Shown: piece after piece, positions 3,325 to 19,976 of the stretch
Numbering within the stretch: position 1 is the first letter of the stretch
Layout of the letters: every line of letters starts with the position of its first letter
Source: Deltaproteobacteria bacterium
GTDB lineage: Bacteria; Desulfobacterota; Desulfarculia; Adiutricales; Adiutricaceae
NCBI GenBank assembly: GCA_031278225.1
Contig: JAITKT010000451.1
Location: 1 to 20,812 of the forward strand
Reading direction: 5' to 3'
DNA: 20,812 bases
Notes under the pieces: model-generated
What the model was told of the DNA's origin: nothing
The model's database searches: none
The model's input: only the letters and a program-made list of their open reading frames with translations
Made by a program: the position numbers and the translations under genes

Positions 3325-3366
3325 CCCCCGTCCTCCCCGATTTTTTCCGATCTTCCCCGAGCTTGC

Positions 3367-5223: not shown

Positions 5224-5253
5224 TTGACTTTGTAACAAAACAAGTGGTATTCA
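5224..5253 (+). promoter_or_regulatory. sigma70-like promoter: TTGACT(5224-5229)-N18-TATTCA(5248-5253), inside an AT-rich island
   Basis: A strongly AT-rich island at 5100-5260 lies in an otherwise GC-rich context. The -35 and -10 candidates sit about 190 nt upstream of the HU/IHF-like gene. Confidence 0.4.
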
Positions 5254-5444
5254 TACTCTTTAGTAATGAAAGCTTATTCTTGCGTCACTTGCTTCGGCCG
5301 TTTTCGGGCCGACGGCGCCGGACCGCCCCCGAAGCTTCGAGAACGACGATTGAGACCCGGGCGCCGACGTCCCGGCGACGGGTCACCCCGGGTTTCCCGA
5401 TTTTCCCCCGGCGGCCCAAGGCCGTCCGAGAAAAAGATTCAACC

Positions 5445-5744
5445 ATGACCGTCACGAAGGACAGCATCGCGAGACAAATTTCGACCGAGACCGGCCACTC
5501 CGCCCAGGCCTCGTCGGAGCTGGTCGACAAGATACTGGACGTTTTGAAGGAATCCATGGAAAAAGGAAACGACATTCTCATAACCGGTTTCGGGAAGTTC
5601 AAAATAACCGAAAGACCGGGGAGGACGGTGAACAATCCCCTGACCAAACACCAAATGGTGGTGAAAAGCAGAAACGTGGTGACTTTCAGGAGCTCCGCGA
5701 AGTTCAGGAAGGACATCAACAAAGACACCGAAAGCGAATCCTGA
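5445..5744 (+). CDS. HU/IHF-family nucleoid-associated DNA-binding protein (99 aa)
   Basis: ORF 5244..5744 begins with GTG, so it is trimmed to the ATG at 5445 (MTVTKDSIARQISTETGHS...). It carries GFGKF and a RPGRTVNNPLT (arm) motif characteristic of HU/IHF, and a 99-aa length is typical. Local GC content is lower than in neighbouring genes. Confidence 0.8.
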   Translation: MTVTKDSIARQISTETGHSAQASSELVDKILDVLKESMEKGNDILITGFGKFKITERPGRTVNNPLTKHQMVVKSRNVVTFRSSAKFRKDINKDTESES

Positions 5745-6623: not shown

Positions 6624-7334
6624 TCACCCGCCTCCGCCGTGTCCGCCCTCTCCGCCGTCCCCGGGCCAATAAAAAATTTTATTCCAAAGGGTCAGGTCCA
6701 AACGGCTTCCGGGCGGCAAAATCAAGAAGCGCCCGGGGTCGTGGGGGCCCGTCAGAAAATCCCTGAGCCAGGCGCGGTCGACTTCCAGGGTCTCGACCGT
6801 GAGCCCCAGGTCGATCGCCATGGGCGAAACCATTCTCGCGACTTTTTCCGGGTCGAAGCTCTTCGTGTCCAAGACTCCCAGCCTGGAATAACCGTCGAGC
6901 ATCTTGTGGTTCAGAAAGGAGGCCGTCTCGCGGTCGAACATGCTCGCGGCTTTCCGGTAGGACGCGAGAAGGCCGCACTCGTGGCGGAGCCACCCCTCGG
7001 TGAGAAAATAGGTGACGGGTTTGGAGGCGTTCATTCTCGCTTCGAAGGAACCCAAAAGGAAGGTGAGGCAGTCGTCGGCGAGGGGCAAAATCGTCTCGTA
7101 GTTTCCCGTCGAAAGCCCGGACAAGCCTCCCCCGCAGTAGCCCAGGGCCACGAGAAGCCTGTCGCAGTTTCCCTCCGCCTCGCCGAAGAGCTCCCGCGCC
7201 CGCGCCCGCAGACGTTCGGTGCTGTTGTGGAGACCTCCGTCGAGCCACAGGACCCTGTGGTTCAGTCCCAATTCGGAGCATGCCCGCTCGATCTCGTCCC
7301 GAATGGTCTCGCAGGCCACGAGGATCGTTTCCAT
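6624..7334 (-). CDS. hypothetical protein, DUF1638-like (236 aa)
   Basis: ORF 6624..7751 trimmed to the ATG at 7332-7334 (METILVACETIRDEIERA...), which has a GGAGG RBS 7 nt upstream. The upstream 139 codons are low-complexity. The DUF1638 assignment is from memory of the family; it features a GYCGGG motif, and confidence in the family is low. Confidence 0.55.
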   Translation of the reverse strand: METILVACETIRDEIERACSELGLNHRVLWLDGGLHNSTERLRARARELFGEAEGNCDRLLVALGYCGGGLSGLSTGNYETILPLADDCLTFLLGSFEARMNASKPVTYFLTEGWLRHECGLLASYRKAASMFDRETASFLNHKMLDGYSRLGVLDTKSFDPEKVARMVSPMAIDLGLTVETLEVDRAWLRDFLTGPHDPGRFLILPPGSRLDLTLWNKIFYWPGDGGEGGHGGGG

Positions 7335-7476
7335 TTCGAAAGGGAGCCTCCAAAGTTTCGCGCTCCTCGCGGGAAAAAGCGCCCGCGAACCGCGAACCGG
7401 AAAAAACCGACCGGAAAACCGGAGCCGGCCAAGGGGGTCGGAAACGCCCCGGAAACAAAACCCGCGCCCGGCGCGA

Positions 7477-7495
7477 AAAGCGTCGCCGACGCTTT
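7477..7495. promoter_or_regulatory. perfect palindrome AAAGCGTCG-c-CGACGCTTT in the intergenic leader
   Basis: Read directly. It has 9-bp arms and lies in the 5' region of the minus-strand DUF1638-like gene. Confidence 0.35.
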
Positions 7496-7640
7496 GAATT
7501 GTACACCAAATTCGGGCGGACATCTTCCGCGAGAGCCCGTTTCCGGCGCCCGGGGAAGCGTTCCGGGCTATACGACTCCCGGCCGCGTTTCCCGAAGCCG
7601 ACGCGGGATGAAGGGGAAAACCCCGCCGGCGGGAAGGCCC

Positions 7641-7660
7641 GGCGATTGGACACAATCGCC
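7641..7660. promoter_or_regulatory. perfect 8-bp-arm inverted repeat GGCGATTG-gaca-CAATCGCC
   Basis: Read directly. It lies about 75-95 bp upstream of the -35 element of the 7733 promoter and is a candidate regulator-binding site. Confidence 0.35.
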
Positions 7661-7732
7661 GCGCGTCCGCGAACATCGCCAAACATAACCTCTTATGTGT
7701 TAAAATGGCATGATTTGTGTTATCGTGCGGAC

Positions 7733-7761
7733 TGGACAGAAGGCGGGTCAAAACTTATAAT
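7733..7761 (+). promoter_or_regulatory. near-consensus sigma70 promoter TGGACA(7733-7738)-N17-TATAAT(7756-7761)
   Basis: Read directly within AT-rich island 7680-7770. It is oriented toward the SPFH gene, whose start lies 285 nt downstream. Confidence 0.55.
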
Positions 7762-7846
7762 TGTTTGGATTCCGCTTTTCTTCGCGCTTTCCCGGGCTTT
7801 CCGCCCGCTCTTTCCCGCGATGTTTCCCCGACCCTTCCGGGCCCGC

Positions 7847-7890
7847 CCGGCCCGAAACCGGCCCGAGACCGGCCCGAGACCGGCCCGAGA
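7847..7890. repeat. 11-bp tandem repeat x4 (CCGGCCCGARA) in the leader of the SPFH gene
   Basis: Units at 7847, 7858, 7869 and 7880, read directly. Confidence 0.6.
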
Positions 7891-8045
7891 ATCGTACGGA
7901 CCTTCCCGCCCCGGGACGGCCTCCCCGCCCGCGAAGAGCCGCCGTAAACGAATTCGCGCCGACGAAAGGCAATACCCGTTTTATTTTCGCCCTGTCCGCG
8001 TCCGGTCCGTCCGGGAACGCCAAATCCTACTCAGCGGTGGTGTCC

Positions 8046-9335
8046 ATGTCAATTCTTCAACTTGTCAAATACGACGGTCCGAACAACGTGTTCGCCTGGA
8101 AATGGCCCAATCAATCTCTTATCACGGGTTCCCAACTCGTGGTCAACGAGTCTCAGGAAGCCGTCTTTTTCAGCGGCGGAAGGGCTTTGGACATCTTCGG
8201 TCCCGGCCGGCACTCCCTGAGCACCAAAAACCTTCCCCTGCTCACCTCCATCGTCAAAATACCCTTCGGGCCCGAATCCCCTTTCACGGCCGAGGTCTGG
8301 TTCGTGAACAAGGTCCACTCCCTGGACGTCAAGTGGGGCACCCCCACGCCAATCCAGGTCCAGGACCCCAAGTTCGGGGTGATGTTGCCCGTGCGCTCCT
8401 TCGGGCAGTTCGGGGTCCAGGTGGAGAACTCGGCCAAGTTTCTGTTCAAGCTGGTCGGCACCACCTCCCGCTTCGACCAGGACTCCATGGGCAGGGTCTT
8501 CAAGGGCCTCTTTCTGACCAAGGCCAAGGACACCCTCGCCCAGTACGTCATCAACAAGAAGATAAGCGTTCTCGAGATAAGCGCTTACCTCGAGGAGCTG
8601 TCGGCCTCCCTGCAGGAGAAGATAACGCCGACCTTCTCCGATTACGGCATAAGGCTTCTGAACTTCTTCGTGAACGACGTCTCGGTCCCGGAAAACGACC
8701 CCGCGGTCGTCCAGCTGAAGAGCGCCCTCGCCAAAAAAGCCGAGATGAACATCCTGGGTTACGACTACACCCAGAAACGCTCCTTCGACGTCATGGAGGG
8801 GGCGGCCAAAAACCCCGGGGCCCCCGGAACCGTCATGGGAACGGGAATAGGCCTCGGCATGGGGATGGGGGTCGGACCTCAGATGAACGAAGCCATGGGA
8901 GGCATTTCGACGAGACTCGACCCGAGATCCTCCTCCGTCTGTCCCAACTGCAACGCGGCGGTCCCGGCGGGCAAAAAGTTCTGCCCCGACTGCGGGACCC
9001 CCCTGGCGGGCGAACCCCAAAAGGCGGCGCCGGTCATCACCTGCGACAAATGCGGGTCCCCCATCTCCCAGGGCGCCAAATTCTGTCCCAACTGCGGGGA
9101 TCCCTACAATCCCTGCCCCAAATGCGGAACGGACCTTCCCAGGGAAGCGACCGTCTGCACCAAGTGCGGTTACGCGCTCCCCAATCCCTGTCCTTTCTGC
9201 GGAACGCCCCTGGAGCGCCCCGGCCTCAAATTCTGCCCCTCCTGCGGAAAGCAACTCACCAAGAAATGCCCCGACTGTCAGACGGACAACGACCCGAAAG
9301 CCAAATTCTGCCTGAATTGCGGCACCAAACTGTGA
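8046..9335 (+). CDS. SPFH/Band-7 (stomatin/prohibitin/flotillin-like, COG4260/YdjI-like) protein with five tandem C-terminal zinc ribbons (429 aa)
   Basis: ORF 7761..9335 trimmed to the ATG at 8046 (MSILQLVKYDGPNNVFAWKWPNQSLITGSQLVVNESQEAVFF...GPGRHSLSTKNLPLL). This N-terminal pattern matches the Band_7_1/COG4260 family as far as I recall. The C-terminal 140 aa carry 10 CxxC motifs, which make 5 zinc ribbons of the form CPxCG...KFCxxCG. Confidence 0.75.
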   Translation: MSILQLVKYDGPNNVFAWKWPNQSLITGSQLVVNESQEAVFFSGGRALDIFGPGRHSLSTKNLPLLTSIVKIPFGPESPFTAEVWFVNKVHSLDVKWGTPTPIQVQDPKFGVMLPVRSFGQFGVQVENSAKFLFKLVGTTSRFDQDSMGRVFKGLFLTKAKDTLAQYVINKKISVLEISAYLEELSASLQEKITPTFSDYGIRLLNFFVNDVSVPENDPAVVQLKSALAKKAEMNILGYDYTQKRSFDVMEGAAKNPGAPGTVMGTGIGLGMGMGVGPQMNEAMGGISTRLDPRSSSVCPNCNAAVPAGKKFCPDCGTPLAGEPQKAAPVITCDKCGSPISQGAKFCPNCGDPYNPCPKCGTDLPREATVCTKCGYALPNPCPFCGTPLERPGLKFCPSCGKQLTKKCPDCQTDNDPKAKFCLNCGTKL

Positions 9336-9351
9336 AAAGGAACGTCGAAAC

Positions 9352-10119
9352 ATGTCAAATCCACTCTCTCAATCAAGATTCAGGAAAATAGTCCTCGTCT
9401 GGGGAGCCGCGATCGTCGTCTGTTCCATTTTGTTCGCCCTCGCCTCTTCCGGGGGAGGCCCGAGCTGGCTGGGCTTTTTCTTTCTCCTTTTGGTGATCAC
9501 CGTGACGGCGGCGGCCTTCGTCTTCAGGCTTCTGTACTCGAAGGACGAGGCCCTGGGCATCTTCAACATCGGGTTTTCCACCCTGACCCTTCTCTATTTC
9601 ATCTTCGGCTCCATAGTGGCCCTGTTTTTCATAGTGGGCAATTTTCAGTCCGTTCGCTTTCTGGTGGCCCCGGAGCTAATCCTTCTCGTCGTGTATTTCG
9701 TGGCCTGCCTCGTGATATTCCTCACCGCGAGGGAACACGACTCCCGGGGCGAAGAGATTTCCAGAAGGGTTTCCCTCGTGGCCGGAATGGAGGCGCGCTG
9801 CAGAAACCTTCACGCGAGGCTCGCCCTCTCCAATCCCGAGGCGGCGGCAATGCTGGAAAAAATTTCGGAAGAAATCAAATACTTCGACAAAAATTCGGAA
9901 GTGAGGGTGGACAAGATCATCACCGACAAACTCATAAGCATCGATGACATGACGAACCCCCAACCGCGGCTCGCGACGACCCCCGCCGGGCCCGGGGAAC
10001 CCCTCCCCGCCGCCGAGCCGCCGAGTCAACGGACGATCGTCGATTCCCTGAAGGAACTCCACCAACTGGTCTTGTCCAGAAAGGACGAGAGCCTGAGGGC
10101 AAAGACGGGTGGTTTTTAA
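9352..10119 (+). CDS. hypothetical integral membrane protein (4 predicted TM helices plus a ~130-aa soluble helical C-terminal domain, 255 aa)
   Basis: The ATG is 17 nt after the SPFH stop, with AAAGGAA upstream. There are four hydrophobic stretches of 20-23 aa. No recognisable catalytic motifs. Confidence 0.6.
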   Translation: MSNPLSQSRFRKIVLVWGAAIVVCSILFALASSGGGPSWLGFFFLLLVITVTAAAFVFRLLYSKDEALGIFNIGFSTLTLLYFIFGSIVALFFIVGNFQSVRFLVAPELILLVVYFVACLVIFLTAREHDSRGEEISRRVSLVAGMEARCRNLHARLALSNPEAAAMLEKISEEIKYFDKNSEVRVDKIITDKLISIDDMTNPQPRLATTPAGPGEPLPAAEPPSQRTIVDSLKELHQLVLSRKDESLRAKTGGF

Positions 10120-10248: not shown

Positions 10249-11490
10249 ATGGAAGGGCCCGCCCGGTTGATTTGCAAAAATTGCGGGGGAGACATAGACG
10301 TCATCCCGGGAGTCACGAAATACAGATGTCCGTATTGCGACTCCGAGAATTTCGTCTTCGATTCCCAGTCCCCGGGCCCGCAGCCGACCGCGATAGCGCA
10401 CGTCATCTGCGCCAAAACCGACGAAAAACGACTCCATTCCCTCCTCTTGTCAAAGATGATAGAGGACCAAATGGCCCCGGACGACATCCTCACCGCGAGC
10501 GTCATCCAGGAAGAAACGGTGATGTACGTTCCCTGTTTCGTGACCAGGGGAACCTTCGACATCAACTGGACGGCCTCCTTCGGCTACGATCGCCGGGAGG
10601 CCTACGTGGCTTACGTCACCGTCGCGGAAGGCGGCCAAAGGAGAACGAGACCCGTGACCCAATACAGAACGGTCACGGATTGGAAACCGGCGAGCGGAAA
10701 CGCCGCCGGAAATTACGCGGCCCTCGGCTACGCCGGCTCCAATCTCTCCAAGGAAGCCGCGGCCTTGGTCGAGGGTCTCCCGACGTCATACCTAATCCCC
10801 TACACCCCGGCCTACGTCGAGGGCTTCACCGTGGAGCCTTTTTACAAGAAACCGGAAGAAGTGGAAGGCTCTTTCGACGACTCCATTCAAAAGCAGGAAT
10901 ACGCCGCGGTGGCGCGCCACTTTCAGGGCGATCGGCAGAGAGACGTCCATTTCAACTCCAAAAGAAAACCGGACTTCGTGCAGCCGGGTCTCCTTCCCGC
11001 GGCCCACGCGGTCTTCGCCTACAAAGACAAACAATACAACCTCTGGGCCGACGGCATCGACCTCTCCAGGGTGATTACCGACTATTTTCCCCGGGACAAA
11101 ACCAGGGGTTCCAAAATCGCGAGAGGCTTGTGGCCCGTTATCGTCGCCTTCGTCGCCCTTGCCGCCACCCTGTTTTTCACCGGGGATTTCACCCCCCTCG
11201 CCCTGGCGGGCCCAATCTTGGGCTTAATCTACTACTACGCCAGAAAGCACTCCATCATCGGCTACTCGAAAAGAATAAGGGAAGCGACGCTCGCCGCGAA
11301 AAAATTGGAGGACAACGACCAGGTGGGTCATCTCACGAACGAGGAAACGCTCGCCTTGAGACAAAAAGCGACGGAAATCGGGGTGAGCCTTCCACTCCTC
11401 GCCAAAACCGATCTGGACCCGTTGGTCATCCCCTTTCTCACCATCGTCTTCGGCGCTTCGACTTACGTCCTGACTTTGTTCTTCCACTGA
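10249..11490 (+). CDS. hypothetical protein with an N-terminal zinc ribbon (CKNC...CPYC), a ~280-aa central domain and three C-terminal TM helices (413 aa)
   Basis: MEGPARLICKNCGGDIDVIPGVTKYRCPYCDSENFVF. Hydrophobic segments are GLWPVIVAFVALAATLFF, LALAGPILGLIYYYA and LVIPFLTIVFGASTYVLTLFF. It lies on the same strand and in the same cluster as the SPFH gene. Confidence 0.6.
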   Translation: MEGPARLICKNCGGDIDVIPGVTKYRCPYCDSENFVFDSQSPGPQPTAIAHVICAKTDEKRLHSLLLSKMIEDQMAPDDILTASVIQEETVMYVPCFVTRGTFDINWTASFGYDRREAYVAYVTVAEGGQRRTRPVTQYRTVTDWKPASGNAAGNYAALGYAGSNLSKEAAALVEGLPTSYLIPYTPAYVEGFTVEPFYKKPEEVEGSFDDSIQKQEYAAVARHFQGDRQRDVHFNSKRKPDFVQPGLLPAAHAVFAYKDKQYNLWADGIDLSRVITDYFPRDKTRGSKIARGLWPVIVAFVALAATLFFTGDFTPLALAGPILGLIYYYARKHSIIGYSKRIREATLAAKKLEDNDQVGHLTNEETLALRQKATEIGVSLPLLAKTDLDPLVIPFLTIVFGASTYVLTLFFH

Positions 11491-11912
11491 ATTTTTCGGG
11501 GGAATTTTTCCCGGTTTCCGCGATGTTTTTTCCCTCGTTTTCCCCGGCCTTCCCGGATAATCGTTTTCCGGGGGTTTGTCCGTCTCGCCCCTCAAAGCGG
11601 ATCGGGTTCCCGCGAAAAATCCGAACCCCCCGGACCCCGGCCGAGGGCTTCGGGCCGAAATCATCCCCCGCCCGCCCCGATCTTCTCCCGAAAAAACCCC
11701 GAAATCCCCCTAATTTCCCCCAAAAACCCCTTTTTCGCCCCCGAAACCCCCCCTTTTTTTTTTCGTCCGCGGCTCTCCCGGCTTCCGGTCTTCGCTTCCT
11801 ACGCCCCGCGCGGCATCCCCTTTTCCCCTGACCCCGGAGCTTCGGGGGAACGCCTTTGTTTTGTCCTACGGGCCCGAGGACTTGTTTTGTCGGTTTCGCC
11901 GCGTCGCGACGA

Positions 11913-11938
11913 CATCAATTGACGCGCGAATCATTTGA
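11913..11938 (+). promoter_or_regulatory. degenerate copy of the operator-like direct-repeat pair (ATCAATTGAC-N6-ATCATTTGAC)
   Basis: Related to the pairs at 12094 and 12319. It is preceded by the same CTTGTTTTGTCGG...CGCCGCG motif. Confidence 0.35.
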
Positions 11939-12093
11939 CCGGCGCCGAATGAAGACCGACCCGGGAAACCACCGACCCCTCCGGCGACGGGTTCTCCGCG
12001 GATCCGAAAACCGAACGCGCCCGGGGACCGGCCGCCATATTCGTCCGAAGGGCGAAAGGCCTTGTTTTTTTGTCGGCGCCGCGCTAAAATGAT

Positions 12094-12119
12094 ATTAATT
12101 GACACGAGAATTAATTGAC
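12094..12119 (+). promoter_or_regulatory. operator-like direct repeat ATTAATTGAC-N6-ATTAATTGAC (copy 1). Each half contains the palindrome AATTAATT.
   Basis: Read directly. It lies about 75 bp upstream of the truncated tetR 5' copy. Confidence 0.45.
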
Positions 12120-12191
12120 CCGCCGCGAAAAAACACCGTTCTTCAAAATCCGAAACAACCCAACAACGCGATCTTCCGCGGTGGTGAAAGA

Positions 12192-12329
12192 TGAATTCGA
12201 TGCCGCAAAGGCGCCGCGTCGGTCGACCCCAGACCCCGCCCCCCGACGGTCCCAAGATCAAAGACATCATCCCGGAAAAATCCATAGAGGTTTTTTTGTC
12301 GGCGCCGCGCCGGAATGATATTAATTGAC
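12192..12329 (+). pseudogene. truncated duplicate of the tetR 5' end (45 codons, no HTH). Its RBS is degraded from GGAGG to GGTGG.
   Basis: MNSMPQRRRVGRPQTPPPDGPKIKDIIPEKSIE... is identical at 30 of the first 33 residues to the TetR N-terminus at 12417. It then diverges and stops inside the second operator copy. Confidence 0.5.
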
Positions 12330-12344
12330 ACGAGAATTAATTGA
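12319..12344 (+). promoter_or_regulatory. operator-like direct repeat ATTAATTGAC-N6-ATTAATTGAT (copy 2), proximal to the intact tetR
   Basis: Read directly. It lies 73 bp upstream of the tetR ATG at 12417. Confidence 0.45.
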
Positions 12345-12416
12345 TCCGCCGCGAAAAAACACCGTTCTTCAACATCGGAAACAACCAAACAACGCGATCT
12401 TCCGCGGAGGTGAAAG

Positions 12417-13346
12417 ATGAATTCGATGCCGCAAAGGCGCCACGTCGGTCGACCCCCGACCCCGCCCCCCGACGGTCCCAAGATCAAAGACATCATCCTG
12501 GAAAAATCCATCGAGGTCTTGAGCGAACAGGGAATCACCAATTTTTCCCTCAAAGACATCTCGACCCGCGCCGGAGTCACGCCGGCCGCCATCTATTACT
12601 ATTTTCACAACAAGAAGGAACTCGTTCTCCAAACACTGGAATTCTATCTGGTGCCCCTCGTGAAAAGTTACTGGGACATCATGAAAAACGAGGAAGACCC
12701 GGTGAAGATGGTCACCTCCCTTCAGGAGAGAATGTTCGAGATAGCGACCGAATACCCGTGGTTTCTGGCCCTCTGGACCCGCGAGCTCGCCAGCGACTCG
12801 CACCCCATGAGGAAATTCCTCAAGGAAAGGATGAGCGAATATTCCTTCTTGTCCTTCTCCGAAAAGATAAAGAAGGGTCAGGACGATAAGCTCATCCACC
12901 CGGACATCATCCCGGAGATGCTCTTCATCTCGATTTTCTCCTCGCTCTACATAAATCTCCTCTCCAGACACAACTGGGAGATGATCTACAACATCGAGAT
13001 ACCCGTCCCCAATCTCCTGAAGCACATCAAGGCCCTGACCGTGCGGGGCATAATTCACAACCCGGAAGAAGAGGGCCGGAAGGCCCGCGAGGCCGCGGCC
13101 GAAACCGTCGCGAAAGCGGCCGCCGAAACCGCCCCGGCGAGCGACCCGGCCGTGGAAACTCCCGTCGCTCCCGACGTTCGCGCCGATCTCGCGGTTCCCG
13201 CCGAACCCGTCACTCCCGCGGATCCCGAAAACCCTTGGAATCCCGACGATCCCGGGGCGCGGCGCGATCTCGAAACCCCGAACAATCCCGAAACCCGAAA
13301 CCCCGAGGAAGCGCATGCCCAAACCGACGGAAACCCCGCCGACTGA
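12417..13346 (+). CDS. TetR/AcrR-family transcriptional regulator with a ~90-aa low-complexity Pro/Ala/Glu-rich C-terminal tail (309 aa)
   Basis: A GGAGGTG RBS sits 5 nt upstream. The HTH reads EQGITNFSLKDISTRAGVTPAAIYYYFHNKKEL, which is a TetR_N signature. The tail from about residue 215 is disordered-looking, and the last 32 nt overlap the emrA-like start. Confidence 0.8.
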   Translation: MNSMPQRRHVGRPPTPPPDGPKIKDIILEKSIEVLSEQGITNFSLKDISTRAGVTPAAIYYYFHNKKELVLQTLEFYLVPLVKSYWDIMKNEEDPVKMVTSLQERMFEIATEYPWFLALWTRELASDSHPMRKFLKERMSEYSFLSFSEKIKKGQDDKLIHPDIIPEMLFISIFSSLYINLLSRHNWEMIYNIEIPVPNLLKHIKALTVRGIIHNPEEEGRKAREAAAETVAKAAAETAPASDPAVETPVAPDVRADLAVPAEPVTPADPENPWNPDDPGARRDLETPNNPETRNPEEAHAQTDGNPAD

Positions 13347-14625
13347 CGACCCGAAATTCGCCGTCCCCGCGGGGCCGAAAGGCCCGGGGCCCGCGGAAAC
13401 CGGACGCCCCGCGCCTTCCCGGAAAAACGGGGCCAAAGCCCTCGTCAAAGCCTTCCTCGTTTTCGCGGTCTTGGGGGCCCTTATCTTCGGATGGTGGCAC
13501 CTCTTCAGGAGGGGAACGGTTTCCACCGACGACGCCTACGTCCAGGGAAACATCGTGAGGGTCGCGCCCCTCGCGGGCGGGACGGTCGTGGAAATTTTGG
13601 CCGACAACACCCAAAGGGTCAAAAAGGGAGACACCCTCATTCGTCTCGACGCGACCGACGCCGCGCTTTCCCTGGAAACGGCCAAAAACGGCCTCAGGAG
13701 CGCCTGTCTCAACCTCAAAAGCCTCGACGCCACCAAAAACAAACTCGCGGCGAACGTCAAGGCCCTCGAAAGCGAGCTCTTTCTCGCCCGAAACGATCGG
13801 GAAAGGGGAATAATCCTCGCGGCCAAAAATTCCATCAGCGCCGCGGAAATGGAGCGTCACGAGGCGGCCTTGGAAATCGCGGGGGCGAGGCTCGCCGCGG
13901 CCAAAGAAGAGCTGGCCTCGACCTTGAGTCTTTTGGGACCCGGACCTCCCGATGCCCACCCCTCTATCCTCCTCGCCGCGGCCGCGATGGAGGAAGCCTG
14001 GCTCAATCTCGCCCGCTCGGAAATAAAGAGCCCCGTCTCGGGAAAGGTCGCGAAAAGAACGGCGCAACTCGGGAGCCGGGTCAACTCGTCGGCCCCGGTT
14101 CTGATGGTCGCCGCGGACGACGAGCTCTGGGTGGACGCCAATTTCAAGGAGAGTCAGCTGAGAAGGATAAAGCCCGGAATGCCCGCCCGGGTCACGGTCG
14201 ACATGCTCGGAAAGAAGACGGTCATAAGGGGGGTCGTGGAGGGACTGGGAGCCGGCACGGGTTCCGTCTTTTCGCTCCTTCCCCCGGAAAACGCCACGGG
14301 GAACTGGATCAAGGTGGTGCAGAGGGTTCCGGTCCGCATAACCCTGGACGCGGATGACCTCGGGGACGCGCCCCTCATTTTGGGACTCTCCTGCCGGGTG
14401 GAAATACGGACGGACGGAACGACGGCCGCGAACGTCAAAAGACGGGAACGCTGGAACTTCAAGACCGAGGTTTTGACCGAGGACGTCTCGGGCGTCCGCG
14501 CCCTCGCGAAAGAGGAACTGGAAGCCTGCCTCGGGACGCCGGACGGATTCGCGGGTTTGGCGGAAACCGCGAAAACCGCGAGCCCGTCGGCGATTTCCGG
14601 CACGGCGGGGAAAAAGTTCCCGTGA
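13315..14625 (+). CDS. emrA: HlyD-family membrane fusion protein, EmrA-like (436 aa)
   Basis: GAGGAAG lies 5 nt upstream of the ATG. A single N-terminal TM helix is followed by TDDAYVQGNIVRVAPLAGGTVVEI, a pattern matching the EmrA N-terminal region. Coiled-coil and barrel regions are present. Confidence 0.8.
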   Translation: MPKPTETPPTDDPKFAVPAGPKGPGPAETGRPAPSRKNGAKALVKAFLVFAVLGALIFGWWHLFRRGTVSTDDAYVQGNIVRVAPLAGGTVVEILADNTQRVKKGDTLIRLDATDAALSLETAKNGLRSACLNLKSLDATKNKLAANVKALESELFLARNDRERGIILAAKNSISAAEMERHEAALEIAGARLAAAKEELASTLSLLGPGPPDAHPSILLAAAAMEEAWLNLARSEIKSPVSGKVAKRTAQLGSRVNSSAPVLMVAADDELWVDANFKESQLRRIKPGMPARVTVDMLGKKTVIRGVVEGLGAGTGSVFSLLPPENATGNWIKVVQRVPVRITLDADDLGDAPLILGLSCRVEIRTDGTTAANVKRRERWNFKTEVLTEDVSGVRALAKEELEACLGTPDGFAGLAETAKTASPSAISGTAGKKFP

Positions 14626-16163
14626 ACGGACGCGCGGGACCTCCCGGACCATCGCGGCCTCCCCTTTCGGGACACAAGCTGGCCCTCATAACCTTCGCCC
14701 TGCCCCTCGCGACCTTCATGCAGGTGGTGGACTCCACCATAGCCAACGTGGCGATCCCCACCATCGCGGGAAACCTCGGGGCCTCGTACTCCCAGGGCAC
14801 CTGGGTCATAACCTCGTACAGCGCGGCGAACGCCATAGTCCTGCCCCTCACGGGAAAACTCGCCCGGGGCTTCGGGGAGGTGAGGGTCTTCACGGCTTCC
14901 GCCCTTCTCTTCTCCCTCGCGTCCTTTCTCTGCGGTCTCGCCCCGGATCTGACTTTTCTGGTGCTCTTCCGGATCTTCCAGGGGGCGGCCGGGGGTCCCA
15001 TGATTCCCTTGGCCCAAACCCTCCTCATGAACAACTACCCGACGAAGTTTCAGGTCTTGGCCCTCGCCCTGTGGTCCGCGACCGTCTCCGTCGCCCCCGT
15101 GGTCGGTCCCGTCCTGGGGGGGTTCATAAGCGACAACCATCACTGGAGCCGGATCTTTTTCATAAACGTCCCCTTGGGGGTTCTCGTCGCGGCGCTCGTC
15201 CACCCCGTCCTCGGCCCGCGGGAGTCGCCCGTCTCCAAGGCCTCCTGGAGCGCCCTGAGCTTCGCCTTTCTGGCCGTCGGGGTGGGCTCGCTCCAACTCC
15301 TTCTCGACAAGGGGAAAGAGCTCGATTGGTTCAACTCGGACCTCATCCTGGGACTGGGAATTTCGTCGGTCGTCGGAATCACCTTTTTGATCGCCTGGGA
15401 AAAGCACAATCCCAATCCCTTGATGGATCCGGACCTTTTCAAACACCGGAATTTCACCGTGGGCGCGACCCTCATCAGCCTCGGGATGATGCTCTACCTG
15501 GGGACCGTGGTGCTTTTGCCCCTTCTTCTTCAAACCCATTACGGATACACGGCCACTTGGGCCGGTCTCGCCACGGCTCCCGTGGGGATTCTTCCCGTCC
15601 TTCTGACCCCCGTCATCGGGCGCTTCGGGGGCAGGGGGGATCCGAGAATCATGATATCCGCGGGCTTTTTGGTCTTCGCCCTGTGCATGCTCATGAGAAC
15701 CGGGTTCGCGCCGGGGGCGGATTTGAAATTCGTGGTCATTCCCCAATTCGTCCAGGGTTTGGCGCTCGCCCTCTTTTTCGTTCCCATCACGAGTCTGGCC
15801 TTCATCGGCCTCGAACCCTCCAAAATGGCCGGGGCCTCGGGCCTCTTCAACTGTCTCCGCACCCTCTTCGGTGGAATCGGCGCCTCGGTCGCGACCACCC
15901 TCTGGGAAAGAAGGGAGGCCTTCCATCATTCGCGGCTCGTCGAATCAATCGACGGACTCGACCCGGAATATCTTCGGGCCATGGAAGGCATGAACGCGGC
16001 GGGCCTCGGGGAAAGCGAGGCACTGGGAAACTTGAGCCGACAAATAACCGCCCAGGGACACATTTTTTCCGCCGCGGAAATCTACATGCTCTGCGCGGTT
16101 TGTTTCGTTTTCCTGATCGCGGTCACTTGGCTCGCGAAGACGAAAAAACCCGCGGCCGCTTGA
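14622..16163 (+). CDS. emrB: MFS transporter, DHA2 (EmrB/QacA, 14-TM) drug:H+ antiporter family (513 aa)
   Basis: GTG start overlapping the emrA-like stop in a GTGA arrangement. TFMQVVDSTIANVAIPTIAGNLGAS matches the EmrB N-terminus, and many TM segments are present. Confidence 0.8.
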   Translation: MNGRAGPPGPSRPPLSGHKLALITFALPLATFMQVVDSTIANVAIPTIAGNLGASYSQGTWVITSYSAANAIVLPLTGKLARGFGEVRVFTASALLFSLASFLCGLAPDLTFLVLFRIFQGAAGGPMIPLAQTLLMNNYPTKFQVLALALWSATVSVAPVVGPVLGGFISDNHHWSRIFFINVPLGVLVAALVHPVLGPRESPVSKASWSALSFAFLAVGVGSLQLLLDKGKELDWFNSDLILGLGISSVVGITFLIAWEKHNPNPLMDPDLFKHRNFTVGATLISLGMMLYLGTVVLLPLLLQTHYGYTATWAGLATAPVGILPVLLTPVIGRFGGRGDPRIMISAGFLVFALCMLMRTGFAPGADLKFVVIPQFVQGLALALFFVPITSLAFIGLEPSKMAGASGLFNCLRTLFGGIGASVATTLWERREAFHHSRLVESIDGLDPEYLRAMEGMNAAGLGESEALGNLSRQITAQGHIFSAAEIYMLCAVCFVFLIAVTWLAKTKKPAAA

Positions 16164-16266: not shown

Positions 16267-17040
16267 TCAATACACGTGAACGCTTTGGGCCGCGGTGGGA
16301 AGATAATTGACCCCCAGCCAGGTCATCATGAGAAAAAGAAAAGCGACCGGGAGCACCCACAGGGTCAGGGCGTTTTTAAGGCCAATCCGTCTCAGGTGGA
16401 TGTAGAGCAGGAAGGCGGCAGCGGTGACGAAGGCCCAGGTCTCTTTCGGGTCCCAGGACCAATAGTGGCCCCAGGCCGCCTTGGCCCAGAGGGCGCCCAG
16501 GATGAGTCCCAGCATCAGGGCCCCGACACCCACGTGGACGAGATTGTCGACGAGGTCCAAGAGTTTCGGATCCTCCGCGCCTTTCCTTCGTTTCACCATG
16601 ATGACGACGCTTCCGACCGCCGACGCCGCGAGGAGGGCGTAGGAGAGGATGTAGAGCGTCACGTGGGGTATGAAGTAAGGGCTCATCAGAGCCGGCATCA
16701 GGGTTTTGGAGTGGATCTCGGGCTTCAGGAGATTCACCGCCGCGAAGACGATGGCCAACGCGGCCCCGAAGGCGAGGAGCCAGGGGTAACCCCAGCGCCT
16801 GTGGGCGAGTATGCCCAGGACGGAAAGAAAGAGGGAATACCAGAGTCTGGTCTCCCCCATGGTCCGGAAGGGGGGTCTTTTCAGGCCGATCCAAAGCCCG
16901 ATTATGAAAACGAGGCTGACCGCCGCGCCGATGGCAATCGCGAGAACGGCCTTGTCGTTCTTTTTCAAAACGAACCACAGGCCCAGGAGCCAGAAAAGAA
17001 TCGCGAGGGGCCCGAAAAATTCGAAGTGAGTCCAGCGCAT
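16267..17040 (-). CDS. ccsA: cytochrome c-type biogenesis protein CcsA/ResC (System II haem handling, 257 aa)
   Basis: WWD tryptophan-rich motif AAWGHYWSWDPKETWAF, and 8 predicted TM segments. The start is chosen at the ATG at 17038-17040, which follows the resB stop in a TGA-A-ATG arrangement and has a GGGGG about 12 nt upstream. An alternative ATG at 17067 cannot be excluded. Confidence 0.75.
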   Translation of the reverse strand: MRWTHFEFFGPLAILFWLLGLWFVLKKNDKAVLAIAIGAAVSLVFIIGLWIGLKRPPFRTMGETRLWYSLFLSVLGILAHRRWGYPWLLAFGAALAIVFAAVNLLKPEIHSKTLMPALMSPYFIPHVTLYILSYALLAASAVGSVVIMVKRRKGAEDPKLLDLVDNLVHVGVGALMLGLILGALWAKAAWGHYWSWDPKETWAFVTAAAFLLYIHLRRIGLKNALTLWVLPVAFLFLMMTWLGVNYLPTAAQSVHVY

Positions 17041-17041
17041 T

Positions 17042-18358
17042 TCAGTCCGCCCCCTTGTCCTTGGCAATGTCGACGGCCTTGCCGGAGACGTCGTTCGCGG
17101 CCTTGTTCGCGGCTCCGGTGTTCGCGCCCTTGTCGGCGCCCATGACGACGAGCCCGAACGCGCCCAGGGCCATGAGAACGAATCCGGCGTAGGCGACGAA
17201 GAGCCAGGGGTCTCTCACGAGAAGGAAGCTGCTCCACGCGGAAAGGTTTCCGGCCTGGTTGTCGTAGCCGTGTTGGTAGACCATCCAATCACCCGCCCGG
17301 AGGGGCTTGTTCACGAGAATCTCGCCTTCCTTTTCGATCCCCTCCTCGGTGAAAACTTTCACGAGAGAGGCGAAACGTTTGGGCTCGGGTCTTGACATGA
17401 CGAGCAGTCTCTCGTCGTCCAGGGTCAGGGGTTGGGGCATGACGAATCTGTTTCCCCCGGCCACCCAGCCTTCCGAGTCGATTCCCGTCAAAGAGCTTTT
17501 CACGCGGAGTTTGGCGGCCTGGGTGGAGGCCTTCATGACGGCCCTCGCGAAGACGCCGTCCCCCACGGGAACCGCCTTTCCCAGGAATTCCAGGACCTCG
17601 ATTTCCAGGTCCAGGATTCCCCTCTGGCCCCCGGGGTCGTCCAAAAAGAACAGGGCCGGTCTTCCCTCCGGAAGCGCGGTTCCGGTGTTCTTTTTGATGA
17701 CGGCCAAGTGGGCGGGCCATTCATCCATGGAAAAATCGTCGAGCCTCACCGCGACGGGAAGTTGAAGCACCTCCCCCGGCTTCGGGCCTTCGACCCTCCA
17801 TTCGACCTCGCCCTCCAAAACCCTCATGACGTGCTGTTCCCGATCGGGGGCCCCGATGCCCGCCGCGAGAAGAACCAGGAAGAGCCCCAGATGGTTCGCG
17901 AGAAAGATCTTCCTCTTTTTGAATTTGGGGACGGTCCTCATGACGGTCGCGGAAAGCGACAGGAGCATGGCGAGATACAAAAACACGAAGGGCCAGGAAG
18001 TCGTGAGATTGAAGAGACCAAGGCCCCGAAGGAAACCCTCCCCCCCGGACCCGGGGATTCTTTGAGGCACGAATCCCATGACGAGGGAAAGAAGCAAAAT
18101 AAAGAGCATCAAGGACAGGGAAAAGGCCCCTCCGGAAAAGAACCCGAAAAACCGGGTCTTTCCCAAGGGAATCGCGGCCAACCCGAAGAAAATCACGAAG
18201 ATTCCGACGTAATGACTCGCGGGGGCGGCGAAAGCCGAAAGGTCGAGGGGCCCGACAACCAAAGAGGTGACGATTCCCCCGCAAAAAACGGCCCCCGCCG
18301 TCAAAAGACCCAGGGACAAGCGATTCAACCGTTTGTTTTTGAGACCGACGTCAGCCAA
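17042..18358 (-). CDS. resB: cytochrome c biogenesis protein ResB/CcsB (438 aa)
   Basis: Basic N-terminus, TM helices, a large periplasmic domain and a C-terminal TM, which is ResB architecture. It sits immediately upstream of ccsA. The apparent TTG start at 18356-18358 has a GGAAAGG about 9 nt upstream, and the exact start is uncertain. Confidence 0.65.
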   Translation of the reverse strand: MADVGLKNKRLNRLSLGLLTAGAVFCGGIVTSLVVGPLDLSAFAAPASHYVGIFVIFFGLAAIPLGKTRFFGFFSGGAFSLSLMLFILLLSLVMGFVPQRIPGSGGEGFLRGLGLFNLTTSWPFVFLYLAMLLSLSATVMRTVPKFKKRKIFLANHLGLFLVLLAAGIGAPDREQHVMRVLEGEVEWRVEGPKPGEVLQLPVAVRLDDFSMDEWPAHLAVIKKNTGTALPEGRPALFFLDDPGGQRGILDLEIEVLEFLGKAVPVGDGVFARAVMKASTQAAKLRVKSSLTGIDSEGWVAGGNRFVMPQPLTLDDERLLVMSRPEPKRFASLVKVFTEEGIEKEGEILVNKPLRAGDWMVYQHGYDNQAGNLSAWSSFLLVRDPWLFVAYAGFVLMALGAFGLVVMGADKGANTGAANKAANDVSGKAVDIAKDKGAD

Positions 18359-18402
18359 GGGACTCGCCTTTCCGAAGATGAAAACCGCGTTTGGGGGAAA
18401 AG

Positions 18403-18445
18403 CCCCGAACGGCCCGAAAAAAGGGGATTTTCGGACCGTTCGGGG
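18403..18445 (-). promoter_or_regulatory. large near-perfect hairpin between nrfA and resB: CCCCGAACGG-c-CCGAAAA-aagggga-TTTTCGG-a-CCGTTCGGGG, a ~17-bp stem
   Basis: Read directly. There is one mismatch in the stem and a 7-nt loop. On the minus-strand transcript it is followed by CUUUUCC, so it could be a partial terminator or an mRNA-stability element. Confidence 0.5.
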
Positions 18446-18485
18446 GGATTGTGGAGGGGTGAGTCAAGGAGTCGCCGGGTCGGCG

Positions 18486-19976
18486 TCAAATCCTGCCGTT
18501 GGCCTTGGCGGTCTCGATCCATTTGGGAACGACGGTTTTCATGAACTCGGCCTTCTGGGCTTCCAGAAGCGGCATGTCGAGGCCTATGTAGCTCTGGGCC
18601 TTCTCCTTGGTCGAGATGTCGGGGAGATCGAATTCGGTGACCCCGTGCTTGAAGAGAATCTCGTTCGCGAGGAGCTGGGCCTGGAAGGTCTTGTCGATGC
18701 CGTGGGAGAGAACCCTCGCCGACTCCAGGGGGGCGTGGAAGGCCGCGCCGTGGGAGGCCACCACGAAATCCCAACGCCATTGGGCCGCCCTTATGAGTTT
18801 GCGGACCGGGGCGAGCTCCTCGTCCGTGGCGCCGTTTTCCATGGCGATCTTCACGAGGATGTGGGCCTTGGCGAGTTCGGGCTCCAACCTGCTTCTGAGT
18901 TCGACGATGGAATCGAAGCGCTCGTAGACCAGATTGCGGAGGGTCTCCTCGGAATCCCTGTGGCAGACCTGGCAGCTGGCCGAGATGTCTTTCAGGGGGC
19001 TCACCAGATGGTGGTTGGAGTACTTGACCCCTCCGTCGGAAACGTAGGGCATGTGGCAATCGGCGCAGGAAAGGCCCTTCTCGCCGTGGGGTCCCATGAG
19101 GAAGAGCTCGTAGTCGGGATGCTGGGTCTTGATGATGGGGGTTTTGGAGACCGCGTTGACGAAGTCGGAATACTCCAGCTCGTCGTAGTAGGCCTCCATG
19201 TCCTCGGCCTTCAGGCCCTTGTCCCAGGGCAGGGTGAGGTACTTGCCGTCGCCCTTGAAATAGTATTCGACGTGGCACTGGGCGCAGACGAGACTCCTCA
19301 TCTCGCCTATGGTGGCGTTCTTCACGTCTCCTCCCGTTCTTTGGTAGTACTCGATCACGCCGGGACGGGTGATGGTGAGCTCCATGGTCTCCGGGTCATG
19401 GCAGTCGGCGCATCCTATGGGATTCACGATCTCCGAACCCAAGCTGCTCCAGGGCGCCTTGTAGTACTCCGCCACGCCCATCTTTTCCATCATCCGGAGG
19501 ACGTCGGGGCTCTTGCAGGTCCAACAGGTGGCGGGCTGGAGGTCCTTGGAGTCCCCCACCCCCGGGGAGCCGACGCGCAGGGTGGCGCGCATGTCCTCGA
19601 TGGTGTACCAGTGTCCCCGGGGCGCCCTGTAATCCCTCGCGAAGGCGTAGCCGGCCCACAGGATGACCATGTCGGGCCGGGCCTCGAGGATGTCCTCGGG
19701 CATGTTCCCCAGATACTTGGATTTGAAATTCATTTCGGAAGTCTGCTTGAAGGTCTGATACTCCCGGGGATAATTCTTTCCCCATCTCTCGCTTTTGGGT
19801 TCTATGCCCTTGATGTCCTCGACCTTGTTGTTGAAAATCGAGGCCACCTCGCTCCTCTTCTCCGTCACGACGGCGGCGAGAAGACCCAAAAGCACGACCC
19901 CGGCCATGGCCCCGCAAAAAATAAAGATACCGATGAGCCAGGGCCCTGTGGAAAATTTTTCTTTCAATGACATCAT
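18486..19976 (-). CDS. nrfA: cytochrome c552 nitrite reductase (ammonia-forming), pentahaem NrfA (496 aa)
   Basis: It carries the diagnostic CWTCK (CxxCK) first haem motif, plus CADCH, CAQCH, CADCH and CQVCH. It has an N-terminal signal/anchor. A GGGGG RBS sits 6 nt upstream of ATGATG. Confidence 0.9.
   Translation of the reverse strand: MMSLKEKFSTGPWLIGIFIFCGAMAGVVLLGLLAAVVTEKRSEVASIFNNKVEDIKGIEPKSERWGKNYPREYQTFKQTSEMNFKSKYLGNMPEDILEARPDMVILWAGYAFARDYRAPRGHWYTIEDMRATLRVGSPGVGDSKDLQPATCWTCKSPDVLRMMEKMGVAEYYKAPWSSLGSEIVNPIGCADCHDPETMELTITRPGVIEYYQRTGGDVKNATIGEMRSLVCAQCHVEYYFKGDGKYLTLPWDKGLKAEDMEAYYDELEYSDFVNAVSKTPIIKTQHPDYELFLMGPHGEKGLSCADCHMPYVSDGGVKYSNHHLVSPLKDISASCQVCHRDSEETLRNLVYERFDSIVELRSRLEPELAKAHILVKIAMENGATDEELAPVRKLIRAAQWRWDFVVASHGAAFHAPLESARVLSHGIDKTFQAQLLANEILFKHGVTEFDLPDISTKEKAQSYIGLDMPLLEAQKAEFMKTVVPKWIETAKANGRI

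Follow-up and report, generated by a model that had tools for sequence, protein, structure and literature searches.

The window that we analyzed is a complete 20,812-bp contig of a metagenome-assembled genome (MAG) from an uncultured bacterium, and it holds an efflux operon headed by a tetR gene. All genes, repeat copies, and promoters described here lie on the forward strand. The operon comprises tetR (12417..13346; 309 aa), a gene for an EmrA-like membrane-fusion adaptor of the HlyD family (13315..14625), and a gene for an EmrB-like DHA2 MFS efflux permease (14622..16163). tetR comes first and is co-directional with the pump genes. The adaptor start overlaps the tetR end by 32 nt, and the permease gene overlaps the adaptor stop by 4 nt. 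No outer-membrane factor gene was identified within the operon. Upstream of tetR lies a 926-bp intergenic region, bordered on its left by a conserved hypothetical gene of 413 aa (10249..11490). The product of this gene matched no Pfam or NCBIfam model, but is 49% identical over 405 aa to that of a 412-aa gene in the same position of a syntenic locus (L002).

The tetR product has an N-terminal helix-turn-helix (TetR_N, PF00440, residues 27 to 72; 49.3 bits, cut-off 24) and an all-helical ligand-binding and dimerization domain (TetR_C_29, PF17938, residues 95 to 210; 36.1 bits, cut-off 26.2), followed by a low-complexity C-terminal tail of ~90 aa. It reached no equivalog model, its best NCBIfam matches being far under their cut-offs. 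A profile made from three orthologs matched Protein Data Bank entry 3s5r (residues 24 to 216, E = 1.1e-23), the closest solved structure, which is itself an uncharacterized TetR from structural genomics. The permease passes the efflux_EmrB model TIGR00711 (486.7 bits, cut-off 230.2) and Pfam MFS_1, which places it among the 14-TMS DHA2/EmrB-subfamily permeases, and it scores below the E. coli-specific EmrB model NF000391 (622.7 versus a cut-off of 925). For the adaptor, the Pfam domains HlyD_3, HlyD_D23, and CusB_dom_1 pass, while its best NCBIfam matches, EmrA PRK15136 (302.8 bits, cut-off 563) and TIGR00998 (282.9 bits, cut-off 390.8), both stay below threshold. E. coli emrRAB has a MarR-family regulator, whereas the regulator here belongs to the TetR family and is not a MarR-family EmrR. 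The likeness to EmrAB is limited to the pump genes of the operon.

A duplicated control region

Two copies of a 226-bp unit lie head to tail in front of tetR, copy 1 at 12064..12289 and copy 2 at 12290..12515, in register and with no sequence between them. They differ by 12 mismatches in 226 positions (94.7% identity), all of them substitutions with no indels. Tandem Repeats Finder likewise reports a repeat at 12064-12517 with a period of 226, 2.0 copies, 94% matches, 0 indels, and a score of 824. The longest run that is identical between the copies is 41 nt, and no k-mer of at least 43 nt is common to both. Each unit contains a T-rich −35 region, an AT-rich site, a leader, a ribosome binding site (RBS), and tetR codons 1 to 33; copy 2 runs on into the functional tetR gene. 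Within the unit are (C)TTGTTTTTTTGTCGGCGCCGCG and the pair ATTAATTGAC-N6-ATTAATTGAC, whose members occupy 12094-12103 and 12110-12119 in copy 1 and 12320-12329 and 12336-12345 in copy 2, where the last one reads ATTAATTGAT. A first-pass annotation of this DNA had described a tandem tetR promoter-operator-5′ coding cassette of ~225 bp and ~95% identity, with a CGCCGCG-type motif, 10-bp repeats, a leader, an RBS, and ~33 codons. Its description of arrangement and content is borne out, as is the size class, although the exact unit is 226 bp.

The dinucleotide GT occurs at both unit starts (12064-65 and 12290-91) and just past copy 2 (12516-17), between unrelated flanks, and 2 nt of junction microhomology is weak evidence if taken alone. 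The junction between the copies (12289/12290) reads ...ATCCATAGAGG/TTTTTTTGTCGG... within 12279-12301 and adjoins a T-run. This tandem is the only repeat of at least 35 bp in the window at E ≤ 1e-3. We rejected a mobile, MITE- or REP-like dispersed repeat because no other copies exist in the window; the unit also includes the tetR start and 33 codons.

The coding part of copy 1 is a truncated tetR fragment of 45 codons (12191..12328), made up of 33 tetR codons and 12 out-of-context codons, and its TGA stop sits inside the operator-like site of copy 2. The fragment has no helix-turn-helix; in full-length TetR, the TetR_N domain begins at residue 27. Its RBS reads GGTGGTG versus GGAGGTG in copy 2. 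The 45-codon length, the missing helix-turn-helix, and the weakened RBS had been noted in the first-pass annotation, and the open reading frame and the comparison of the two RBSs bear this out. Furthermore, copy 1 carries P14Q and L28P: copy 2 and the orthologs have P at residue 14 and L or M at residue 28, and copy 1 has Q and P, the latter a proline in helix 1. Judged against copy 2 and the orthologs, these two changes and the weakened RBS are all derived, and the coding fragment is decaying, while the predicted promoter and predicted operator of copy 1 are intact. This is the pattern expected of a real, unconstrained duplicate fragment. The 45-aa peptide had no exact match in the protein collection.

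An older and decayed copy of the cassette lies farther upstream (11860..12039), with a period of 180 bp relative to 12040, and can be detected to ~12014. With blastn, 11860-11958 aligns to 12040-12138 at 69.6% identity (E = 5e-7), and the local alignment score of 44 compares with 22.4 ± 2.5 (maximum 32) across 300 dinucleotide shuffles. An nhmmer search stretches the copy to 11883-12014, corresponding to unit positions 3 to 131 (E = 1.7e-7). The similarity of 11959-12063 to the leader was not significant taken alone, and no further, older copies were found in 11491-11860 by blastn, local alignment, or nhmmer profiles. The motif pair survives as ATCAATTGAC/ATCATTTGAC with the 16-bp spacing of the young copies. 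The operator-like site, CATCAATT-GACGCGCG-AATCATTT (11913..11936, given without strand), is degenerate, with three mismatches to ATTAATT-N9-ATTAAT among 13 conserved core positions, and CATCAA stands where the young copies have a −10-like TATTAA. A diverged third copy ~180 bp upstream, placed by the first-pass annotation at 11867-11940, thus exists and is significant, but spans ~11860 to 12014. To count "three potential operator pairs" was an overstatement given the 3 of 13 core mismatches and the TATTAA that is now CATCAA.

A single copy in orthologous loci

The comparison with related genomes that the first-pass annotation had called for covered five orthologous loci, one of them syntenic. 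Their TetR proteins are 47 to 56% identical to the one here (the closest ~56%) and 199 to 223 aa long versus 309 aa, and the intergenic DNA is otherwise unalignable. Each locus has one operator-like site, 17 to 141 nt upstream of tetR, and a tandem duplication of at least 40 bp is absent from all five. The duplication would therefore be a real but ordinary structural mutation. In the syntenic locus, a 255-aa gene, the 412-aa gene, tetR, the adaptor, and the MFS permease follow one another, and the intergenic region is 136 bp long versus 926 bp here. By tblastx, a second orthologous locus (L001) has tetR alone in common with the window. The exact TetR of the window occurs on no other contig on record. 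Scans of genome and metagenome contigs with the single TetR protein and with a two-sequence alignment returned nothing, and rescans with a three-sequence alignment returned only the contig of the syntenic locus (as L006) plus unrelated TetRs.

Copy 1 and the junction are known from one metagenome contig, the window itself, which raises the possibility of an assembly or library artefact: two strain haplotypes joined into a chimera, or a chimera that arose in amplification. A single independent assembly is available, Logan contig L005 (run SRR14710901, k = 31); it covers 12378-13348 with 2 mismatches in 971 nt (~0.2%, strain-level variation). It has all copy-2 variants from 12378 on, joining the copy-2 haplotype to tetR, and because it begins inside copy 2 it is silent on the junction. 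It is also unbroken at the 14 31-mers that copies 1 and 2 have in common, so copy 1 is possibly rare or absent in SRR14710901. However, the lack of any common k-mer of 43 nt or longer means that a large-k assembler cannot make the repeat by mis-traversal, and the junction sequence must therefore occur in reads. Sequences flanking the copies on the left and on the right are unrelated, so a popped or unpopped bubble is not at issue either. Nor do the differences between the copies look like those between alleles, since copy 1 is damaged in its RBS and at two conserved residues, and the adjoining older copy, with another breakpoint, shows that duplication does occur at this locus. We consider an artefact unlikely, and give a chimeric origin of the junction a very small probability.

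Predicted promoters and a candidate operator

A scan with the sigma-70 consensus found no promoter; the hexamers are weak, and the consensus may not be that of the host. Promoter positions were therefore predicted through comparison with the orthologs. The putative promoter of copy 1 is TTGTCG-N17-TATTAA (12070..12098), preceded by TGa, and that of copy 2 has the same hexamers and spacing (12296..12324). A matching architecture is found at two orthologous loci, as TTGCTT-N17-TATTAA in L001 and TTGCAT-N17-TATTAA in L019. Copy 1 alone has a possible alternative, TTGTTT (12062-12067)-N17-TAAAAT (12085-12090). At positions 12085-12087, copy 2 has CGG and the old copy CGC, while copy 1 has the derived TAA, and it is this change that places TAAAAT 17 nt downstream of TTGTTT. 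Terminator-like hairpins occur at chance level (5 versus 2.9 ± 1.6). We rejected a riboswitch or other structured leader: Rfam gave no match at the gathering threshold in the whole window or at E ≤ 1 in 11300-12700, a tRNA scan was also negative, and the leader RNA folds no more stably than shuffled sequences (z-scores of +1.04 and −0.30).

The ATTAATTGAC pairs had first been read as direct repeats. The repeats are present, but they form an inverted repeat equally well, and the site is better described as a palindrome of 22 to 24 bp, (T)ATTAATT-N8-AATTAAT(T), a form typical of TetR-family operators. The 22-bp core, ATTAATT-N8-AATTAAT, has 7-nt arms that are 100% complementary and an 8-nt spacer, with the arms at 12094-12100 and 12109-12115 in copy 1 and at 12320-12326 and 12335-12341 in copy 2. 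As TATTAATT-GACACGAG-AATTAATT, the full sites span 12093..12116 and 12319..12342 (given without strand). Matches to ATTAATT-N9-ATTAAT with up to three mismatches number 7 in the window, counting both strands, versus 0.59 ± 0.91 expected, and none of 100 shuffles reached 7.

Of the 22 loci that we fetched, five orthologous ones (L001, L002, L019, L020, and L022) carry the palindrome exactly once, upstream of tetR, and it occurs nowhere else in the set. Recognizing the direct repeats as a 22-bp palindrome conserved in these loci is new here. The 7-N8-7 inverted repeat is perfect in the window, L001, and L002, and the 24-bp site aligns across orthologs while the surrounding intergenic DNA does not. 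Because a single copy is kept upstream of tetR in five orthologs, close to the gene's own promoter and overlapping the −10-like TATTAA, TATTAATT-N8-AATTAATT is very probably the autoregulatory operator of TetR. The prediction draws on autoregulation, the inverted repeat, and conservation among the promoters of homologs, the same principles used by the operator-prediction tool Snowprint (PMC10858194). A length of 22 to 24 bp suggests that the putative operator would be bound by two dimers. A literature search returned nothing relevant on tandem TetR-operator duplications or on AATTAATT operators.

Alternatively, the palindrome might be an element of the promoter or be recognized by another factor, such as a global regulator or a nucleoid protein, with the TetR operator elsewhere. 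The left arm and the −10-like hexamer overlap, and the promoter could thus account for some of the conservation; the right arm, however, lies 16 bp downstream, where no sigma-70 element is expected, and is equally conserved in perfect dyad symmetry. The restriction of the site, within the 22 loci, to DNA upstream of tetR also points to TetR, as does the recognition helix, which starts with V(T/S)PA in the five site-bearing orthologs and with VSGAL in L021, the closest ortholog that lacks the site. On the other hand, L003 and L004 have a similar start (VSPAS) and yet no palindrome, and the covariation of recognition helix and site is only suggestive. Because L021 (48% identity) and the more distant L003 and L004 are without the site, the motif is confined to a sub-clade. 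Note that a palindrome of 22 to 28 bp over −10/+1 is the standard TetR-family arrangement at autoregulated efflux operons, as for AcrR, QacR, and TtgR, and the layout predicted here corresponds to it. A role unrelated to TetR is improbable.

Likely origin and possible consequences of the duplications

We find it likely that the locus underwent two nested, lineage-specific tandem duplications, leaving behind an additional promoter under operator control and a defunct remnant. The ancestral state would have been one promoter, its −10-like TATTAA overlapping a single palindrome. In the first event, a segment of ~180 bp with promoter, operator, leader, and ~10 codons would have been duplicated; the upstream copy (11860 to ~12039) would since have decayed, losing its −10 and operator core. 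Later, the 226-bp segment (12064-12289) would have been duplicated at the 2-nt GT microhomology, probably through replication slippage or illegitimate recombination, and the young copies would then have diverged by 5.3%. The different breakpoints (periods of 180 and 226 bp), the 2-nt microhomology, and the five orthologous loci without a duplication agree with an earlier suggestion that slipped or recombinational duplication, occurring repeatedly, left these repeats as its footprint.

Copy 2 would provide the working tetR promoter, operator, and start. With its promoter intact and its operator perfect, copy 1 probably acts as an additional promoter that TetR can repress. Transcription from copy 1 would first pass the poorly translated, non-functional 45-codon fragment, then run into the operator of copy 2, where bound TetR might act as a roadblock, and proceed to tetR-emrAB. 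All told, the effect is likely to be modest: somewhat more transcription under induction, repression at the same level or tighter, and a further site for a repressor that controls its own gene.

The extra promoter-operator copies could also have been kept by selection because they alter the response of the efflux operon, with tandem promoters raising induced expression, the downstream operator tightening repression as a roadblock, and extra sites buffering or titrating the repressor. A similar segment has been duplicated twice at this locus, and the young duplication has survived to 5.3% divergence, against ~0.2% strain-level variation; that is long for a tandem repeat to go without loss, which leaves room for selection. 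In copy 1, the −35, the −10, and both operator arms are untouched, while the RBS and coding part are damaged, and the derived change at 12085-12087 creates the alternative TAAAAT. However, the 31-nt stretch that holds the site would be identical between copies with a chance probability of ~0.19 at 5.3% divergence, and its identity is therefore not evidence of constraint. With a longest identical run of 41 nt, recombinational loss is expected to be slow, so persistence needs no selection. Furthermore, decay of the oldest copy was tolerated, no ortholog carries a second site, and with ~21.5 helical turns in 226 bp, the sites are not in phase for looping. We know of no TetR-family dimers that bridge distant sites. 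The "cooperative, titrating repressor array" first proposed for this locus is unsupported on these grounds of operator identity, spacing, and ortholog site number, and a selected array in general has a small but real chance of being correct. The more specific proposal, that stacked repressible promoters re-tuned the operon adaptively in this termite-gut bacterium, giving higher induced output while the operator roadblock held the basal level low, and that divergence between the copies then stabilized the array, has as a whole only a slim chance of holding. We continue to favor the two nested duplications as ordinary mutations.

Comparison with known systems

AcrR/acrAB, QacR/qacA, TtgR/ttgABC, and MtrR/mtrCDE are TetR-family efflux repressor systems with long palindromic operators, and MtrR-operator structures have reportedly been published. 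The locus described here resembles these systems (for QacR, at qacA IR1) in its TetR helix-turn-helix and ligand-binding C-terminal domain, in the adjoining efflux pump, and in the long palindrome overlapping −10/+1. In contrast to them, tetR is co-directional and first in the operon, not divergent, and there are two to three copies of the control region. EmrAB-type pumps under TetR control include VceR-vceCAB of Vibrio cholerae and the rhizobial TetR-type EmrR/RmrR with emrAB/rmrAB. These share the combination of a TetR regulator, an EmrA-like adaptor, and an EmrB-like DHA2 MFS permease, but the adaptor here scores under the curated EmrA cut-offs, and its operon has no identified outer-membrane factor gene. 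The predicted operator is unrelated in sequence to those that we know.

More than one operator per TetR-family repressor, acting on its own gene and an efflux gene, is familiar from Tn10 tetR-tetA, where O1 and O2 lie ~30 bp apart in one divergent promoter region, an ancient and conserved design. The sites here are instead 226 bp apart, arose when an entire cassette, coding sequence included, was duplicated, and do not occur as a pair in orthologs. Spontaneous tandem duplications in bacteria occur at short microhomologies, and in Aspergillus fumigatus the promoter tandem repeats TR34 and TR46 of cyp51A raise expression of a resistance gene. The parallels to this locus are spacerless head-to-tail copies, a junction at 2 nt of microhomology beside a T-run, and promoter elements duplicated upstream of a resistance-type gene. 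Unlike TR34 and TR46, the repeat here also copies the repressor's predicted operator and 5′ coding sequence; because the operator is duplicated along with the promoter, the expected gain in expression would be damped.

Current views of TetR regulation and of duplication mechanisms are unchallenged by this locus. The main use of the duplication is that it pinpoints the repressor's likely binding site. Its practical value is small: a well-supported operator prediction, TATTAATT-N8-AATTAATT, for a rare TetR clade in Deltaproteobacteria MAGs from termite guts, of potential help in regulon searches or in the design of biosensors. The locus also illustrates regulatory DNA that grows by nested tandem duplication and then decays, as seen in an intergenic region of 926 bp where the syntenic relative has 136 bp. 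If the two live copies do alter induction of the operon, the locus would exemplify natural promoter-operator stacking, and if the adaptive reading were true, it would represent natural regulatory evolution by operator-promoter duplication.

Tandem duplication of the tetR control region

The control region and 5' end of a TetR-family regulator gene occur twice in tandem, as the first-pass annotation had claimed. The sole large array found by Tandem Repeats Finder (TRF) lies at 12064-12517 (period 226, 2.0 copies, 94% matches, no indels), and in register, 12 mismatches over 226 positions separate copy 1 (12064-12289) from copy 2 (12290-12515; 94.7% identity). Each unit holds a T-run with TTGTCGGCGCCGCG, the AT-rich pair ATTAATTGAC-N6-ATTAATTGAC (the final repeat is GAT in copy 2), an 86-nt leader, an RBS and codons 1-33 of tetR, much as first described. 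A GT dinucleotide stands at both unit starts and directly after copy 2, and the DNA flanking the two copies is unrelated. Self-comparison of the whole window gave no further repeats of at least 35 bp. This is an ordinary microhomology-type tandem duplication.

Copy 2 is continuous with the working tetR. Because the copy 1 unit ends after 33 tetR codons, it has only the 45-codon ORF already annotated (12191-12328), which loses its tetR context at the junction and has its stop codon within the AT-rich site of copy 2. Residue 14 is Q in copy 1 but P in copy 2 and five of six aligned orthologs; residue 28, in helix 1, is P rather than the L or M of copy 2 and the orthologs; and the RBS is GGTGG instead of GGAGG. 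These departures indicate that the copy 1 coding fragment is an unconstrained relic. By contrast, copy 1 retains an undamaged putative -35 and -10 and both arms of the operator. At 12085-12087 it has a cluster of 3 nt, TAA, where copy 2 has CGG and an older copy has CGC; TAA is probably derived, with weak polarity, and yields TAAAAT 17 nt after TTGTTT, a possible extra -10.

This older, degenerate copy (11860 to ~12039), also claimed at first pass, is real. Positions 11860-11958 match 12040-12138 at 69.6% identity (E 5e-7; local alignment score 44 versus 22.4 +/- 2.5 in dinucleotide shuffles), and nhmmer extends the homology to 12014, the unit's start-codon position. The similarity begins 24 bp left of the young unit boundary and has a period of 180 bp. 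Because the breakpoints of the two duplications differ, the sequence points to two nested events, not a single triplication. With TATTAA now CATCAA and three mismatches in the operator core, the old copy is most likely dead.

Weak terminator-like hairpins with T-runs lie directly upstream of copy 1 (12049-12071, AGGGCGAAAGGCCTT+GTTTTTTT; its T-run is the exact start point of the young unit) and of the old copy (11843-11866, CGGGGGAACGCCTTTG+TTTTGTCC). The five such sites in the region are at chance level (2.9 +/- 1.6 expected).

We consider it very improbable that the repeat is an assembly artefact. The longest run identical between the copies is 41 nt, and they have no common k-mer of at least 43 nt, so the junction would have to exist in reads; mis-traversal by a large-k assembler is ruled out. 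A genuine duplication is further favoured by the derived, damaging changes that copy 1 has gathered and by the older copy, whose breakpoint is different. A k=31 assembly made independently (Logan contig of run SRR14710901) matches 12378-13348 with two mismatches and all copy-2 variants, starting one base past a copy-1/copy-2 variant site, 3' of the junction, and ending 2 nt past the tetR stop. It is unbroken across 14 31-mers common to both copies, which may reflect a run in which copy 1 is scarce or missing, or a simplified assembly graph.

The regulated operon

Downstream lie tetR (12417-13346; TetR_N and TetR_C_29 domains), an HlyD/EmrA-like adaptor (13315-14625) and a DHA2/EmrB-subfamily MFS permease (14622-16163; TIGR00711, 486.7 bits, cut-off 230.2). 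Each ORF runs into the start of the next, so the three are predicted to form one operon. The regulator agrees with the TetR family on every testable feature. The pump genes are EmrAB-like, with the adaptor scoring under curated cut-offs. Searches for Rfam families, tRNA and a significantly structured leader found none.

At 309 aa, the product of the tetR ORF is longer than six orthologs (199-223 aa). The additional ~90 aa (13086-13346) form a low-complexity tail rich in Ala/Pro/Glu, which contains a degenerate 9-bp repeat array (7.6 copies, 13160-13227) and overlaps the EmrA-like gene start by 32 nt. The tail also occurs in the Logan contig and is therefore no error of this one assembly.

A conserved candidate operator

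The TetR belongs to a rare clade, of which seven relatives (47-56% identity) were recovered, in six distinct loci. Exactly one ATTAATT-N9-ATTAAT occurs in each of L001, L002 (=L006), L019, L020 and L022, always upstream of tetR, and none elsewhere across all 22 fetched loci. In alignment, the sites are TATTAATT-N8-AATTAATT, except for AATTAATT on the left in L022 and AATTAATA on the right in L020, and the surrounding intergenic DNA is unalignable among orthologs. The AT-rich pair was first labelled a direct repeat. The pair stands, and the label holds in part, since ATTAATT and AATTAAT are reverse complements and the site is equally a perfect 7-N8-7 inverted repeat. Inverted repeats are the usual shape of TetR-family operators. 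Operator prediction by Snowprint rests on autoregulation, an inverted repeat and conservation in homologs' promoters (PMC10858194); judged by these principles, the palindrome very probably serves as the operator for the TetR encoded here.

The left arm overlaps TATTAA in L001 and L019, 17 nt 3' of TTGCTT or TTGCAT. Both young copies have TTGTCG-N17-TATTAA, a putative promoter recognised by comparison with the orthologs; a simple consensus scan called no promoter. The site is absent in one ortholog (L021) and in two more distant relatives (L003 and L004). The recognition helix starts VSGAL in L021 versus V(T/S)PA in the site-bearing orthologs, a difference that is suggestive only.

Single-copy state in relatives

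No orthologous locus has tandem repeats of at least 40 bp near tetR, and none has more than one site. The duplication therefore appears to be lineage-specific, and the ancestral state a single site. L002 is syntenic with the window (255-aa gene, 412-aa gene, tetR, adaptor, MFS; 38-69% identity), and its intergenic region upstream of tetR is 136 bp versus 926 bp here. The two duplications explain ~406 bp of this excess. The remainder, 11491-11860, consists of low-complexity DNA in which neither similarity to the unit nor an Rfam match was detected.

These ~370 bp of C-run/A-run/T-run DNA (for example, CCCGAAAAAACCCCGAAATCCCCC) separate the upstream gene from the old copy, show TRF periods of 10 and 20 at 11687-11750, and have nothing comparable in L002. 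The hypothetical gene pair (255 and 413 aa, no Pfam family; 9352-10119 and 10249-11490; L002 1012-1779 and 1964-3202) is 38% and 49% identical to that of L002. Its synteny with tetR-emrAB holds in that MAG, where protein identity is ~50%, and it may be linked functionally to the efflux operon. L003 (1219-1653, 2047-2260, 3235-3514, 5263-5453, 7684-8266) and L004 (1079-1323), both of the same sample series, have several tandem duplications of their own, 40-215 bp long and diverged (70-87%); tandem duplication thus seems to be frequent among these genomes.

The window makes up a complete 20,812-bp contig from a MAG with the label "Deltaproteobacteria bacterium", whose nearest relatives are other MAGs so labelled and Candidatus Adiutrix. 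The MAG of L002 carries the sample prefix Pcl387, which is given to MAGs from lower-termite guts. Elsewhere the contig resembles ordinary chromosome: genes with named domains (1174-4191, minus; 5244-5744, plus; 6624-7751, minus), among them a LUD-domain/4Fe-4S/CCG protein and a second LUD-domain protein (lactate-utilisation type), an HU-family DNA-binding protein with a ~65-aa N-terminal extension and a DUF1638 protein. Long ORFs at 7280-9391, 16276-17145, 17432-18544 and 18267-19970 have no Pfam family.

Proposed working and significance

We infer that TetR binds the site overlapping -10/+1 and keeps its own operon repressed until a ligand frees it, probably as two dimers because the palindrome is 22-24 bp long. 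This lineage would then carry a pair of such promoters, one behind the other and both repressible. Transcription starting at the upstream one would pass through the 45-codon relic, itself poorly translated, and across the downstream operator to reach tetR-emrAB. The net effect would be modest: perhaps more transcription on induction, with repression the same or tighter.

The first-pass annotation suggested a cooperative, titrating repressor array, which, as something kept by selection, we regard as unlikely. The same type of duplication did occur twice here, and the young repeat has lasted to 5.3% divergence versus ~0.2% strain-level variation. However, nothing is specific for selection: a 31-nt stretch around the site without any change could arise by chance (p ~0.19), the old copy was left to decay, the sites lie ~21.5 helical turns apart, and more than one site occurs in no ortholog.

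The TetR-family proteins AcrR, QacR, TtgR and MtrR are classical efflux repressors whose operators are long palindromes, and VceR-vceCAB is a TetR-regulated EmrAB-type pump. The present system would work like these repressors and like VceR-vceCAB, whereas E. coli emrRAB has a regulator of a different family. Its elements are of known kinds and involve no new mechanism; a useful by-product of the analysis is the predicted operator.
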